DNA of 64,000 nt from an uncultured Candidatus Saccharibacteria bacterium (GCA_964481135.1 CAYZSW010000002.1:29283-93282); one strand, 5' to 3'; counted from the stretch's first letter, positions 47,401 through 57,237 are shown. The notes: generated by a model from the letters alone, not told the origin. A program made the numbers and translations.

Positions 47401-47476
47401 GCGTGTGTAGCTCAGTGGTTAGAGCGCCACCCTTATAAGGTGGAGGTCGAGGGTTCAATTCCCTCCACACGTACCA
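47401..47476 (+). tRNA. tRNA-Ile with anticodon TAT (reads AUA), CCA encoded
   Basis: Hand fold: acceptor GCGUGUG/CACACGU (G1-U72), U8 A9, D-stem GCUC/GAGC, anticodon stem CCACC/GGUGG with loop CUUAUAA (U34 A35 U36), T-arm GAGGG-UUCAAUU-CCCUC, disc A, CCA. Followed by the terminator hairpin at 47483-47508. Confidence 0.75.
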
Positions 47477-52892: not shown

Positions 52893-52966
52893 CGCGGGGT
52901 AGAGTAGTAGCAACTCGGAGGTCTCATAAGCCTCAGGCCTGGGTGCAATTCCCAGCCCCGCTACCA
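52893..52966 (+). tRNA. initiator-type tRNA-Met (CAT), CCA encoded
   Basis: Hand fold: C1·U72 mismatch at top of acceptor stem (CGCGGGG/CCCCGCU), U8 A9, D-stem GAGU/ACUC with A11:U24, anticodon stem GAGGU/GCCUC with loop CUCAUAA, 4-nt variable, T-arm CUGGG-UGCAAUU-CCCAG (unusual G55), disc A, CCA. Immediately abuts the next tRNA. Confidence 0.65.
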
Positions 52967-53042
52967 GGCTGAGTAGCTCAGTGGTTAGAGCAACGGCATC
53001 ATAAGCCGGAGGTCGAAGGTTCAAATCCCTCCTCAGCCACCA
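52967..53042 (+). tRNA. elongator-type tRNA-Met (CAT) (could alternatively be a lysidine-type Ile2), CCA encoded
   Basis: Acceptor GGCUGAG/CUCAGCC perfect (G1-C72), D-stem GCUC/GAGC, anticodon loop AUCAUAA, T-arm GAAGG-UUCAAAU-CCCUC (one A·C mismatch), disc A, CCA. Confidence 0.65.
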
Positions 53043-53273: not shown

Positions 53274-55064
53274 ATGAATAAATCAAATTTAACAACCAAT
53301 ATTATTTATATAATTATTTTAGTTTTTTTAGGTATATCCGTTTATACTTATTTTAATTTTGATTCAAATCAACAAGAAGAAGGTACGATTTCTCAAATCG
53401 CCTACGAGGTTAAACAAAACAACATTTCTAAAATTGAAGTAGATGGCAACAAAGTAGTTGCAAAATATAAAAATAATGATAATGAAATTAAAGCATATAA
53501 AGAAAATTCGGTTGGATTACATGATTATGGCATTATTCCAGAAAAAGTAGAAATCGATGTTAAGGATGATTCTCGTAATGCAATCTGGGGAACTATTCTT
53601 TCAATATTACTTCCTTTTGTTTTAATTGCTGGTCTATTATATTTTATGCTAAAACAAGCTCAAGGTGGCAATATGAAAGCCATGTCTTTTGGAAAAACCT
53701 CTGCTCGACTTTTTACAGGAAAAAAGAAAATAACCTTTAATGATGTTGCTGGTCTTAAAGAATCTAAAGAAGAATTAGAAGAAGTAGTTGATTTTTTAAA
53801 AAATCCAAAAAAATATAAAAAACTAGGAGCTGATATTCCAAAAGGGACCTTGCTTGTCGGGCCTCCTGGGTGCGGTAAAACACTTTTAGCAAAAGCAGTT
53901 GCTGGTGAAGCAGGAGTACCATTTTATTCTCTTTCAGCATCAGAATTTGTAGAAATGTTTGTAGGTGTAGGTGCATCTCGAGTAAGAGATTTATTTAAAA
54001 AAGCAAAAAGAAATGCTCCAGCACTTATTTTTGTTGACGAGCTTGATGCAGTAGGCAGACAAAGAGGAACCGGACTAGGTGGATCACACGACGAAAGGGA
54101 ACAAACTTTAAACCAAATCTTAGTAGAAATGGATGGTTTTGAAACAGAAGAAAATGTTATTGTGATCGCTGCTACCAACAGACCAGATGTACTAGATCCT
54201 GCACTTTTAAGACCAGGAAGATTTGACAGACAAGTTGTTGTTAATCTGCCAGATAAGAAAGAACGAGAAGAAATATTAAACATACACGGCAAAAATAAAC
54301 CTCTCGATAAAGATATTAATTTTGAAAAAATTGCAGCATCAACCGCAGGACTTTCTGGTGCTGATTTAAGAAATATTGTTAATGAAGCTGCAATACTAGC
54401 TGCTAAAAAAGACAGCAACAAAGTAACTCAATTAGATTTACAACATTCTATTGAAAAAGTTCTTCTCGGACCAGAAAAAAAATCCAGAGTATTAAACGAA
54501 AAAGAAAAACAAATCACTGCTTTCCACGAAGCAGGACATGCAATAGTAGGCCATGTTTTGCCAGGTTGTGAAGATGTACATAAAATATCTATTGTATCTC
54601 GTGGAAGAGCACTCGGATATACATGGAGTTTACCAAAAGAAGATATTCATCTTTATTCTAAATCAAAATTCCAAGATCAAATTGCTCAGCTTCTTGCTGG
54701 TCGCGCTGCAGAAAAAATTATTTTTAAGGAAACTACAACAGGCGCTGAAAATGATATGAAAGAAGCATCAAAATTAGCAAGAAATATGGTCACAGTTTAC
54801 GGTATGAGTGACAAAATTGGTCCCCAAACTTTAGGACAAAGAGAAGAATTAGTATTTTTAGGTCGCGAACTCGGAGAACACAAAAACTATTCTGAAAAAG
54901 TTGCTTCTATTATTGATGATGAAATAACAAAAATCATTCGCGATGCAGAAAAAAAAGCAGAAGAAATTTTAGCAAATAAAAAAATAACTTTAGATAAAGT
55001 TGCTCACAAATTATTAAAAGATGAAACTATAGATGAAAAAACATTTAGCAAAATGCTAAATTAA
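53274..55064 (+). CDS. ftsH: ATP-dependent zinc metalloprotease FtsH
   Basis: TM anchor, Walker [12 protein letters not shown] region, HEAGHA zinc motif. Confidence 0.95.
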
Positions 55065-55121
55065 TCTTTAGTAATTTTTCTAAGCTCTAAAACTTAGATT
55101 GCTTACCCGCTAAGGCCTAAG

Positions 55122-55172
55122 CTGGGAAACTAGGATTCGAACCAAGATTGACAGATTTAGAGTCCGCTGTCC
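55122..55172 (-). other. tRNA-Gln-derived 3' fragment (anticodon arm with CUA + T-arm + acceptor 3' strand; no matching 5' half)
   Basis: Minus strand: ...GACAGCGGACUCUAAAUCUGUCAAUCUUGGUUCGAAUCCUAGUUUCCCAG; aligns base for base with the 3' 50 nt of the adjacent tRNA-Gln (…ACGGACUCUGAAUCCGUCAAUCUUGGUUCGAAUCCAAGUCCCGGAG) but with anticodon CUA (amber); upstream is an unrelated hairpin (CCUGCC-GAUGA-GGCAGG) instead of a D-arm. Confidence 0.5.
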
Positions 55173-55238
55173 CTGCCTCATCGGCAGGTCGCCGACGAGA
55201 CGACTACTATCTCAAATATGAATTCATTGATCACACAG

Positions 55239-55309
55239 CTCCGGGACTTGGATTCGAACCAAGATTGACGGATTCAGAGTCCGTTGTCCTACCATTAGAC
55301 GATCCCGGA
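55239..55309 (-). tRNA. tRNA-Gln (anticodon CTG); CCA not encoded
   Basis: Minus strand: acceptor UCCGGGA/UCCCGGA (U1-A72), 3-bp D-stem GUC/GAC with loop UAAUGGUAG, anticodon stem ACGGA/UCCGU with loop CUCUGAA, T-arm CUUGG-UUCGAAU-CCAAG, disc G. Confidence 0.8.
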
Positions 55310-55461
55310 GCTGTGTGATCAATTCTATTTATCATTTTCAATATAATTTTTTATTTTTTAAGCTTCGTAAAATGTATACATATAATGCCGTTTAATCATG
55401 TCCTCATCTCCTCGGTGAGTTGCCGAAGAGGCAACTACCATTGGACGGTCTGGCAACAATT

Positions 55462-55491
55462 AAAATCACCCATAATTATAGGTGATTTTTG
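55462..55491. terminator. bidirectional intrinsic terminator between ftsH/tRNA locus and the antiporter gene
   Basis: AAATCACC-CATAATTATA-GGTGATTT with a T-run on both strands. Confidence 0.65.
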
Positions 55492-55524
55492 ATTTATTGT
55501 AAACAAACATGATTAAATTTAATA

Positions 55525-57237
55525 CTAAATTTCCTTTACACTTTTTAATGAATTATAAATCTTTTTCTGATGGCTTAGTAAGTTGTTTAAATGCTTATCT
55601 TTCTCTTCATCAAACTTTCTTTGATCAAAACCATACTTTGCAATAAGTCCAGAGGTATATCTACTGCCAAGAAAATGTGGCGTAATAACATAATCAGCTT
55701 TTTGATCGTAGTATTTAACTGCTTCTTCAGAATTGTGAGCAATCACGATTAAGATTATTTTTTTATTAATTTTCTTAATTTTTGAAATAAGGGCTGTATT
55801 AACTTCGTAATCTGGGATTGTTGAAATGACCATTTTTGTTTGGTTTAAATGAAGATTTTCTAGGACTTCTTGATCCTCTGCATCTGCATATAAACTATTA
55901 AAACCTTCTAGTTCCAAATTTTTAATTACTTCAGGATTATAATCAATTACTAAATACTTAATTTTATTTTTTACTGCTGTGTGTAAAAAATCTATTCCTA
56001 ACCTGTTACAACCAAAAATAACTAAATCGTGTTTATTGTCTTTTTTCGAAATTTCACTCCTAACATGTTTTTTTTCAAAAATTTTAATAATTGGTTCACA
56101 TAATAAATATAGTTTTTCTGAATAAATCATAGCATAAGTTGAAAAAGTAATGGTAATAATTGCAACTAAAGTAACAAGAGGTAAAATCGAACTATCAATA
56201 TGCCCTACTCTTATACCAAGAATAATTAAAATTAATGAAAATTCCGAGATTTGTGCTACAGTTAATCCTGCCAAAAATGCGTTTTTGGCAGTATATTTTA
56301 ACTGTGTCATTAAAATTATTACAATTAATGGATTGCCAATTAGCACAAACAAAGAAAAATAAATTGCTGGCATAATTACTTGAGAGATACCATTTACTGC
56401 CAATTGCGAACCAAGCAAAATAAAAAATAAAATAATAAAGAAATCTCTTAAACTTTTCATCTTACTACTAACTTCAAGCTGATATTTGGAGCTCGCCAAG
56501 GCAACACCACCAATTAATGCACCTATTTCAATAGAAAAACCAATTTTGTAAAATAGTGTTGAAATAGCCAAGCCCCAAGCAATTGTAAATAAGAAAAGAA
56601 GTTCTTGCGACTTAGCAAAATAATCTAGCAATCTGCTTAAAACATAAATACTAAATAACATAATTAGTGCGGTCAAAATTATTCCATAGAAAATTGTAGT
56701 AATAATATTTGCGCCAACATTAATATGACTTTGGGCACTAGAAGAAATAATCATAAGCATTATAACTGCCACAACATCCTGCACAAGCAAAAAACCAATT
56801 GCAATTTTTCCATATAACTTATTAATTGCTTTTTTATCAGATAAAATTTTTAAAATAATAATCGTACTTGAAAAAGTTAAAGCAATACTAATATAAACTG
56901 CACTAATAATATCAAAACCCATATATCTACAAATTAAAAAACCAATTAGTGAAGTAAAAATAATTTGCCCTAGGCCAGTTACAAGCGATACCTTACCAAC
57001 CTCTTTAAATATTTTTGGCGTCAAACTAAGACCTATAATAAATAACAAAAATGTAATACCTACCTGGGAAAGCATTTCTACTGTTTGTTTAACCTCAAAA
57101 TTATTTTTTAAAATTGTACCCACCAATAAACCGGCAATAATATATCCGATTATAAGTGGCTGTTTAATTTTATAAATAATCCCGGCAATTACCGCTGCAA
57201 TTATTATAATAATACTAAAATCTATGTATTGATTCAT
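55525..57237 (-). CDS. monovalent cation:proton antiporter (CPA2/KefB-like) with C-terminal TrkA-N (RCK) domain
   Basis: 12-13 TM helices, then Rossmann DLVIFGCNRLGIDFLHTAVKNKIKYLVIDYNPE. Confidence 0.85.
   Translation of the reverse strand: MNQYIDFSIIIIIAAVIAGIIYKIKQPLIIGYIIAGLLVGTILKNNFEVKQTVEMLSQVGITFLLFIIGLSLTPKIFKEVGKVSLVTGLGQIIFTSLIGFLICRYMGFDIISAVYISIALTFSSTIIILKILSDKKAINKLYGKIAIGFLLVQDVVAVIMLMIISSSAQSHINVGANIITTIFYGIILTALIMLFSIYVLSRLLDYFAKSQELLFLFTIAWGLAISTLFYKIGFSIEIGALIGGVALASSKYQLEVSSKMKSLRDFFIILFFILLGSQLAVNGISQVIMPAIYFSLFVLIGNPLIVIILMTQLKYTAKNAFLAGLTVAQISEFSLILIILGIRVGHIDSSILPLVTLVAIITITFSTYAMIYSEKLYLLCEPIIKIFEKKHVRSEISKKDNKHDLVIFGCNRLGIDFLHTAVKNKIKYLVIDYNPEVIKNLELEGFNSLYADAEDQEVLENLHLNQTKMVISTIPDYEVNTALISKIKKINKKIILIVIAHNSEEAVKYYDQKADYVITPHFLGSRYTSGLIAKYGFDQRKFDEEKDKHLNNLLSHQKKIYNSLKSVKEI

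Follow-up and report, generated by a model that had tools for sequence, protein, structure and literature searches.

A probable decayed selfish cassette carrying a replacement tRNA within a split tRNA-Gln gene of a Saccharibacteria bacterium

We analysed a stretch of 64,000 nucleotides from an uncultured Candidatus Saccharibacteria bacterium (GCA_964481135.1, CAYZSW010000002.1:29283-93282; hereafter the window), in which two partial copies of a tRNA-Gln gene enclose an intact tRNA-Gln(CUG) gene. With a probability of roughly 0.75, the locus holds, in decayed form, a homing-type selfish cassette of Candidate Phyla Radiation (CPR) bacteria that targets tRNA genes and carries a replacement tRNA. 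The two outer pieces once made up a single old tRNA-Gln gene, which was split at position 21/22, in its D-loop; the inner tRNA-Gln(CUG) is the functional gene. Besides the anatomy of the locus, we observe an intact form of it in a relative and recurrence of the same unit elsewhere; a nuclease open reading frame (ORF), a hairpin and the inner tRNA are under selection, and the outer halves of the window copy have decayed. The outer 3' piece, which carries the anticodon CUA, is the mutated 3' half of the dead gene, a pseudogene without function and not a suppressor.

The split tRNA-Gln gene

The locus lies on the minus strand, in the intergenic span that runs from a Na+/H+ exchanger gene (55525-57237) to the end of ftsH (53274-55064; Pfam assignments). 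The only tRNA that ARAGORN reports in it is the tRNA-Gln(CUG), which scores 65.5 bits with the Rfam tRNA model (Table 1). A first reading of the window, made from the sequence only (the sequence-only reading), had noticed a 3' piece with a CUA anticodon downstream of this gene and a segment resembling a tRNA 5' half upstream of it, and both are present. Local alignment of the intact tRNA with the downstream DNA yields 40/44 identities from the 3' strand of the D-stem (GGACA) to the T arm, with the anticodon CTA at 55158-55160; upstream, GACCGTCCAATGGTAG matches GATCGTCTAATGGTAG of the tRNA 5' part at 14 of 16 positions. The near-identity that had been ascribed to the whole 3' piece holds for the anticodon arm, the variable loop and the T arm, and fails in the acceptor 3' strand, where TTTCCCA agrees with the TCCCGGA of the intact gene at only 3/7 positions.

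Table 1. Features of the tRNA-Gln locus in the window, listed in minus-strand order.
Feature	Coordinates	Strand	Basis and remarks
Promoter-like site TTTACA-17-TATAAT	55475..55503	-	11/12, consensus scan only; just 5' of the outer 5' fragment; conserved in L089
Outer tRNA-Gln 5' fragment, positions 1-21, TGCCAGA CC GTCC AATGGTAG	55435..55455	-	Acceptor 5' strand, D-stem 5' strand, D-loop
Left 32-nt double-hairpin motif, degenerate copy	55403..55434	-	Covariance model match 55399-55438, 53.3 bits; pattern match; family alignment; at the D-loop/D-stem junction 21/22
GACA, tRNA positions 22/23-26, left copy	55399..55402	-	Final A doubles as the A of the ORF's ATG
GIY-YIG nuclease ORF remnant	55325..55399	-	Alignment to the intact 90-aa ORF of L089; start and last codons retained
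Extension helix 5' strand ATTGATCACACAGC	55310..55323	-	Part of the 14-bp helix lengthening the acceptor stem of the inner tRNA
Inner intact tRNA-Gln(CUG), without encoded CCA	55238..55309	-	ARAGORN; Rfam 65.5 bits; 72/72 identical to the L089 copy
Extension helix 3' strand GCTGTGTGATCAAT	55226..55239	-	Begins at the discriminator base
D-loop remnant GAGATAGTAG	55204..55213	-	Opens the right-hand duplicated unit
Right 32-nt double-hairpin motif	55172..55203	-	Covariance model match 55168-55207, 62.6 bits
Outer tRNA-Gln 3' fragment	55122..55171	-	GACA, anticodon arm with CTA, variable loop, T arm, acceptor 3' strand TTTCCCA, discriminator G

The two outer halves no longer make a tRNA in the window. 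The strands TGCCAGA and TTTCCCA pair at 5/7 positions, with two C-C mismatches, and the halves joined in silico give no tRNA even at a relaxed ARAGORN threshold, which bears out the earlier remark that the 3' piece lacks a compatible 5' half. Folding programs had been named as a check for a complete canonical tRNA over the CUA piece: ARAGORN finds none there, and the piece scores 19 bits (E=0.74) with the Rfam tRNA model, below the gathering score of 29.

The intact form of the locus is found in L089 (L-numbers are labels of comparison loci and contigs), the closest relative found, which is collinear with the window and has an FtsH 85% identical. Among the species representatives of GTDB the closest FtsH sequences come from metagenome-assembled genomes labelled Saccharibacteria (68%) and Berkelbacteria (62-63%); the closer relatives L089 and L090 were taken from a larger protein collection. 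In L089 the outer strands TGCCAGA and TCTGGCA pair at 7/7 positions, and the latter is followed by G, CCA and a terminator. The outer 3' part there has the anticodon CTG and, from GGAC up to the T arm, the very sequence of the inner tRNA; joined in silico, the two halves form a canonical tRNA-Gln(CUG). Between them stand a GIY-YIG ORF of 90 amino acids (aa) and, mounted on its extension helix, the inner tRNA that the window also has. The outer 5' half of the window likewise gives a perfect tRNA-Gln(CUG) when joined in silico to the 3' half of L089. The outer 3' halves of the window and L089 differ at 4/44 positions, at 3/7 acceptor bases and in CCA; the changes comprise anticodon G36 to A, a U-U mismatch in the T-stem, three acceptor bases and CCA to CTT.

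The loss of acceptor pairing, of a T-stem pair and of CCA, together with the use of TAG as a real stop, which the sequence-only reading had rightly pointed out (it closes 7/41 long ORFs in the window), identifies the CUA piece as the mutated half of a dead gene. Seventeen comparable Gln 3' fragments carry the anticodons CTG (10), TTG (5), CTA (1) and TTA (1), as expected of sporadic G-to-A decay. Of the two origins that had been suggested for the piece, descent from a Gln isoacceptor gene stands. That of a suppressor does not, given this tally, the lost pairing and CCA, and the CTG of the orthologous L089 fragment, which does not share the CUA anticodon. For the window this disposes of a tempting false lead: neither an amber suppressor nor any sign of an altered code is present.

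A phage origin of the CUA piece was dropped as well. A blastn search against phages matches generic tRNA-Gln only, and seven IMG/VR contigs with the same anticodon-arm/T-loop pattern hold ordinary intact tRNA(CUA) genes and lack the hairpin motif described below. These seven contigs, L082-L088 (89-385 kb), belong to large phages, and ARAGORN labels their tRNA(CUA) 'Pyl'; these tRNAs are ordinary suppressors of TAG-recoded phages, unrelated to the window fragment.

The inner tRNA differs from an ordinary gene in two respects. Its acceptor stem is lengthened by the extension helix (fold z = -7.3), which shows a compensatory U-A to C-G change relative to L089, and it lacks an encoded CCA, which the other four tRNAs of the window and the outer gene of L089 possess. 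The span between the two outer fragments, with the intact tRNA inside, measures ~0.23 kb in the window and 0.43 kb in L089. At the same place L090 (FtsH 75%) has a plain tRNA-Gln(CUG) with CCA and no insert, and in L002 (68%) there is only a tRNA-Gln, lacking CCA, that stands on an extended helix. With L090 plain and the insert in the window and L089, the site is empty in one relative and occupied in two, in a comparison of distant relatives and not of a polymorphism within a population. FtsH served as the synteny anchor; the Na+/H+ exchanger was dropped for this purpose, its homologues being 52-57% identical and scattered.

The double-hairpin motif

The hairpin that follows the 5' piece had been described as a different one. 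It is in fact homologous to the hairpin that precedes the 3' piece (34-nt alignment), and the pattern GTAGTNGNNTCNTCGGCNACNNNCCGANGA has exactly two matches in the 64 kb, these two copies, with 0 expected by chance. Each outer fragment thus consists of a tRNA part and the same 32-nt insert. The motif is placed exactly between GGTA(G) and GACA, at the D-loop/D-stem junction (position 21/22), and its consensus reads GTAG, then TCGCC-TCNTC-GGCGA-C-CCGCC-GANGA-GGCGG, then G-ACA. In most loci the left copies stop 4-5 nt past the motif. The break in the tRNA gene is in the D-loop and not in the 3' half, and the associated gene encodes a GIY-YIG nuclease.

An exact-match scan with 21 specified bases recovered the motif in at least 118 metagenome contigs, where its neighbour is nearly always a tRNA fragment, a complete tRNA or a GIY-YIG ORF. 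No match to a near-equivalent pattern occurs in 2.9 million viral contigs, and no Rfam family matches the motif. The matches listed comprise 120 distinct motif contexts, on which the counts of contexts and loci given below rest.

Across 84 distinct copies, 97.8% of cells are paired in a fold of two hairpins. The second hairpin covaries at its unconstrained positions (CG 56 / UA 21; next pair GC 67 / AU 10), to a degree reached by 0 of 500 shuffles. Since the pairs covary, we read the motif as a single-stranded nucleic acid, RNA or single-stranded DNA (ssDNA), rather than as a double-stranded palindrome. Its two hairpins are one unit in opposite orientations, and in some loci they are found separately. 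A fold into one long 11-bp hairpin was rejected for want of covariation: 58 of the 84 copies leave the central pair unpaired, and shuffles do equally well or better. The same result argues against a loop-loop pairing of the two variable loop bases. Motif pairs within a locus are identical in 7 of 12 cases, compared with 4% of pairs between loci.

Two other identities of the motif were rejected. Against a high-copy miniature inverted-repeat transposable element, neither the rest of the 64-kb window nor ~600 kb from other CPR loci holds a further copy. A spliceable mini-intron was tried by in silico excision, which produced a tRNA call in one of the 120 listed contexts, and that a spurious one; as excision never restores a contiguous tRNA, the motif is not a mini-intron of working genes. 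When a ribozyme core was sought with cmscan, both the window locus (E<=10) and five canonical loci (E<=1) returned only tRNA and noise. Resemblances to a hammerhead-like CYGAUGAG, to a K-turn/box C and to a bulge-helix-bulge were dismissed by eye, the core positions being a misfit. An intron or split tRNA of the archaeal bulge-helix-bulge type was dropped, as the host is bacterial (FtsH, DivIC, sortase) and the junctions, judged by eye, are two covarying local hairpins.

These results bear on whether the outer halves could still work together, as a split or intron-containing tRNA whose pieces are joined or act as two, in which case the window would encode an amber suppressor. The outer halves do pair at 7/7 positions in L089, L202, L180, L150, L116 and L172, the GC-rich hairpins at both cut sites could serve as exonuclease stops, the extension helix could keep the pieces together, and the anticodon-stem changes of the window retain G-U pairs. 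The window itself, however, has an acceptor paired at 5/7 with two C-C mismatches, a U-U in the T-stem, no CCA, no ARAGORN call and TAG as a normal stop in 7/41 long ORFs. Elsewhere T-loop inserts or degenerate motifs often break up the outer 3' halves further. There is no match to a group I, group II or other ribozyme family, no tRNA with the motif as its only interruption occurs among the 120 listed contexts, and a complete spare tRNA is almost always present. We regard a working split tRNA as very improbable.

The left and right copies of the motif differ at 12 positions in the window and at 10 in L089, and at none in most other loci. Such decay of the left motif, accompanied by that of the outer halves in both genomes, speaks against the fragments and hairpins having been domesticated, independently of mobility, as signals for the processing, stability or termination of the inner tRNA or its transcript, and L090 manages with a plain gene. 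Domestication would account for the promoter-like site standing upstream of the outer 5' fragment and not of the inner tRNA, for an extension helix kept by a compensatory change despite a dead ORF, for a right motif still near the consensus at 62.6 bits and for the retention in L002 of only the tRNA on its extended helix. On balance it seems unlikely.

Related inserts were seen within dead tRNA fragments. Right-hand fragments of L119 (647-688), L195 (547-588), L155/L209 and L152 bear double-hairpin inserts of ~31-35 nt in the T-loop, just past GGTTC of the dead 3' fragment and in some cases with UCNUC/GANGA loops, which suggests that the small hairpin unit can insert alone at GGTNN sites. A second family of GC-rich hairpin inserts, distinct from the motif, is of the CTGCCCGCC...GGCGGGTAG type; these are 35-45 nt long and also lie inside dead tRNA fragments (L089:2810-2900 on the minus strand, L196, L200, L108, L172, L141 and L169), interrupting the outer 5' fragment of L089 twice. 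A tRNA-Phe-like 3' fragment carries a 27-nt hairpin, TTTACCCCGCCG...CGGCGGGG, at the canonical intron position 37/38 in L114, L133 and L168; L128 has the same fragment without the hairpin.

The GIY-YIG nuclease gene

In the window the ORF is cut down to a 75-nt stump by the loss of ~200 nt between two AAAAAATAAAA repeats, and it carries a 2-nt insertion. The 90-aa ORF of L089 matches the Pfam family GIY-YIG (PF01541, E=6.5e-14), and its nearest solved structures in the PDB are UPF0213 proteins (1zg2, E=2e-9) and SLX1. UPF0213 is a widespread family to which, to our knowledge, no function has been assigned. A word-indexed protein search with the 90-aa ORF returned 14 relatives, and the pattern Y.Y...Y.G.T..R..EHN...YEA is conserved across 18 ORFs. 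The ratio dN/dS of the ORF lies at 0.07-0.15, and at 0.07-0.10 in the two informative pairs; by this measure of the coding sequence, the cassette ORF is under purifying selection.

In some cassettes the nuclease ORF runs into the complete tRNA gene, which supplies its stop codon. In L214 (1730-1780) its stop codon is the TAA of the D-loop GTCTAATGG, and in L217 (1440-1470) the ORF (1201-1467) overlaps the first ~20 nt of a tRNA-Val gene that starts at 1447.

Recurrence and mobility of the cassette

A complete tRNA and/or a GIY-YIG ORF lies on the same strand as the motif in 103 of the 120 listed contexts, and in none of them is a GIY-YIG ORF found on the opposite strand. The ORF starts 3-20 nt past the motif in 32 of 38 cases. 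The recurrent unit opens with tRNA positions 1-21, the motif and tRNA positions 22-26; an ORF of 81-90 aa and a complete tRNA follow in that order. In ~17 of 27 listed ORF-bearing loci the 5' fragment agrees with the complete tRNA at every position (21/21), and in 10 of the 27 the tRNA is followed by a second motif and a 3' fragment, as in the window; 13 of the listed loci have their motifs spaced 400-460 nt apart. An extension helix of at least 9 bp is present in 17/32 tRNAs preceding a motif and in 10/152 other tRNAs (p = 6e-5).

The adjacent tRNAs are most often Gln (51 of 93 among the listed matches) and include Thr, Pro, Met, Ile, Gly, Trp, Phe, Ala and Val. The motif follows GGTA(G), at position 21/22, in most of the 120 listed contexts and in at least 10 isoacceptor types. 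Two motif loci were assigned, to Moranbacteria and Falkowbacteria.

Mobility is indicated by L141 and L190, which share a ~90% identical cassette, tRNA included, between unrelated flanking genes, with homology ending at the cassette ends. Although their dS is about 0.8, near saturation, the left motifs agree at 36/36 positions, and one compensated pair and one D-loop base are the only differences between the inner tRNAs. The right-hand 3' fragment of L141 derives from a different tRNA-Gln than its inner gene.

Plain tandem duplication followed by decay would dispense with a mobile element: three tRNA-Gln genes would have arisen by slippage or unequal crossing-over, and two would have decayed. 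Fragments identical to the complete tRNA in many loci fit this, and local duplication does occur. L097 and L207 are near-identical and differ by a 55-nt extra tRNA-Gln 5' fragment with another GC-rich hairpin, without a change in the ORF, so a unit of fragment and hairpin has recently been gained or lost and such duplications are ongoing. Left unexplained, however, are the recurrence of one 32-nt motif at one and the same position of tRNA genes for Gln, Pro, Gly, Thr, Met, Ile, Trp and others in different lineages, the fixed linkage with the ORF, the heterologous acceptor stems of inner and outer genes and the same cassette in unrelated contexts. Duplication alone is therefore quite unlikely.

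The sequence-only reading had seen in the tRNA pieces the scar of an integrase-mediated insertion. A mobile insertion into a tRNA gene is retained in our interpretation; the integrase is not, and the island lies between the fragments. If the pieces were attL/attR remnants of a phage or island integrated at tRNA-Gln, partial tRNA copies beside an intact tRNA would be the classic signature, and the 40/44 match agrees with it. There is no tyrosine or serine integrase within ~5 kb of the locus (the ORFs between 49 and 62 kb of the window encode a surface protein, DivIC, FtsH, the exchanger, a sortase, a product without Pfam match and a decarboxylase), and the locus is not a kilobase-scale insert bounded by a tRNA 3'-end repeat with the intact gene at one border. 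The fragments lie 28 nt and ~90 nt from the intact gene and enclose it, one of them is a 5' part, the break is in the D-loop, and both bear a motif that is linked elsewhere to the GIY-YIG ORF and has no matches in viral contigs. An origin as att scars is thus extremely improbable.

Variant cassettes, found by similarity of the ORF protein alone, depart from the common arrangement. The motif is at position 13/14 in L214; the order is ORF, motif, tRNA in L216, with the motif in the leader; the hairpins are split between D-loop and T-loop in L215; a different hairpin accompanies the tRNA-Val locus of L217; and the ORF copy of L210 has no tRNA at all.

Proposed mechanism

We propose that the cassette split the resident outer tRNA-Gln(CUG) gene at position 21/22 of the D-loop. 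On the minus strand the locus now comprises the outer promoter, outer positions 1-21, a double hairpin, GACA and a gene for a GIY-YIG protein of ~88 aa, of which the window has a remnant, continuing with a spare tRNA-Gln(CUG) on the 14-bp helix, the D-loop remnant, a second double hairpin and outer positions 22-76. The whole unit would be transcribed, probably as one transcript, from the promoter of the outer tRNA, and the nuclease gene would ride in a tRNA leader. The inner tRNA, which would supply all tRNA-Gln(CUG) function, would be released by RNase P and RNase Z, possibly helped by RNase III cleavage of the extension helix. The nuclease would spread or retain the cassette by break-induced gene conversion into tRNA genes, i.e. 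by homing, and the spare tRNA would offset the cost of the destroyed target, the cassette being tolerated because a complete tRNA is brought in or regenerated. The double hairpin would act as RNA or ssDNA, as the 5' leader of the nuclease gene and/or as a binding site of the nuclease; binding of the nuclease, translational control and protection against exonucleases are its possible roles. The window copy has since had its nuclease gene deleted to a stump and its outer 3' half mutated, with CTG changing to CTA.

Several observations weigh against this interpretation. The inner tRNA still holds the presumed target sequence AATGGTAGGACA, so simple immunity through disruption of the target fails to explain how the cassette protects itself. 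Standard homing does not explain the ~45-nt duplication, motif included, at both junctions, nor the host-specific bases 22-26 between motif and ORF. The cassette protein has no DNA-binding domain, and its nuclease activity and site specificity are predictions. In its acceptor strand, TCCGAGA, L090 resembles the inner copy (TCCGGGA) more than the outer copy (TGCCAGA), so the identity of the resident copy is derived mainly from CCA and the terminator. Finally, two changes of the window in the outer anticodon stem retain G-U pairing, a weak hint of residual constraint.

The questions of self-protection, of the ~45-nt duplication and of bases 22-26 leave room for an RNA-scaffolded nuclease or for transposition by hairpin ends. 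The motif and the tRNA 21-mer found ahead of it in every case may be an RNA or ssDNA cofactor of the minimal GIY-YIG nuclease, the 21-mer providing target recognition and the hairpins a protein-binding scaffold, which by analogy with the omega-RNA of TnpB/IscB would amount to RNA-guided or RNA-scaffolded homing into tRNA genes. Alternatively, the two hairpin copies may mark where a mobile element ends that moves as a single strand, with a GIY-YIG enzyme that recognises hairpins as its driver. We consider such schemes a speculative minority option.

Relation to known systems

The nearest analogues share parts of the cassette. In phage T4, SegB is a free-standing GIY-YIG homing endonuclease encoded in a cluster of tRNA genes (PMC2330249). 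As in the cassette, a GIY-YIG gene there lies among tRNA genes without an intron or ribozyme, and the neighbouring tRNA gene is co-inherited by gene conversion (PMC2330249). Unlike the phage protein SegB, which has extra DNA-binding regions, the cassette protein of ~88 aa has only a catalytic domain, of UPF0213/SLX1 type, and belongs to cellular CPR genomes; the cassette, moreover, is inserted within a tRNA gene, of which it leaves 5' and 3' fragments that overlap, and bears a conserved double hairpin. Insertions that code for GIY-YIG proteins and belong neither to the group I nor to the group II introns occur in the rRNA genes of CPR bacteria (PMC11270868). They resemble the cassette in radiation, protein superfamily, targeting of a structural RNA gene and lack of intron character; the target there is rRNA, and the paper describes no double hairpin or spare gene copy and contains 0 occurrences of tRNA (PMC11270868).

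Islands and prophages with tyrosine integrases also target tRNA genes, leave partial tRNA duplicates and keep the function by element-borne sequence. The cassette differs in its lack of an integrase, its size of ~0.45 kb, its D-loop break and its provision of a whole spare tRNA or a duplicated 5' part instead of a 3' end. Group I introns with homing-endonuclease ORFs occur in bacterial tRNA genes, in the anticodon loop. They too are selfish insertions with a nuclease ORF inside a tRNA gene, whereas the cassette has no ribozyme core according to Rfam, lies in the D-loop, shows no evidence of splicing and is rescued by a second gene copy. Like IS200/IS605 and REP/RAYT elements, the cassette is small and has short GC-rich hairpins with covarying stems in the same orientation at both ends; those elements depend on an HUH transposase and neither target nor duplicate a tRNA, while the enzyme of the cassette is of the GIY-YIG type.

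A split in the D-loop, a spare tRNA, a mini-nuclease of UPF0213 type and a conserved double hairpin occur together in none of these analogues, and the cassettes form a widespread and seemingly undescribed family. No description of the cassette was found in the literature searched, the coverage of which was incomplete, so that a prior description is possible. The cassettes would represent a recurrent route by which a selfish nuclease gene enters an essential single-copy RNA gene without an intron, namely by splitting a tRNA gene and supplying a spare. The family offers a testable handle on the role of UPF0213/SLX1-like mini-nucleases, and it accounts for tRNA pseudogene fragments and for tRNAs with extended stems and no CCA in CPR genomes. 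Annotators may take tRNA fragments with odd anticodons beside intact tRNAs in these genomes as cassette debris.

Neighbouring features

An independent assembly of the window sequence (L001, a Logan contig of SRR10872647, 3989 nt) stops within the inner tRNA-Gln, ~283 nt past the stop codon of the exchanger, probably because the repeated tRNA segment broke the assembly.

Two other tRNA loci of the window deserve mention. A tRNA-Ile with the anticodon UAU lies at 47401-47476 (+), and the same is found in the related CPR loci L006, L013, L017 and L018; in bacteria AUA is mostly read by a modified tRNA-Ile(CAU). Directly upstream of ftsH, two tRNA-Met(CAU) genes abut with zero spacer (52893-53042, +), a pair kept together with its position in L002, L004, L006, L089 and L090.

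The product of the exchanger gene, of the Na+/H+ exchanger/TrkA-N type, has top non-self matches of only 52-57% identity. Its homologues are scattered over DPANN archaea (Nanoarchaeota, Pacearchaeota, Woesearchaeota) and CPR bacteria, and the gene is absent from the orthologous stretch of L090, which runs from FtsH through tRNA-Gln to the sortase. It looks like a laterally acquired gene inserted beside the tRNA locus.

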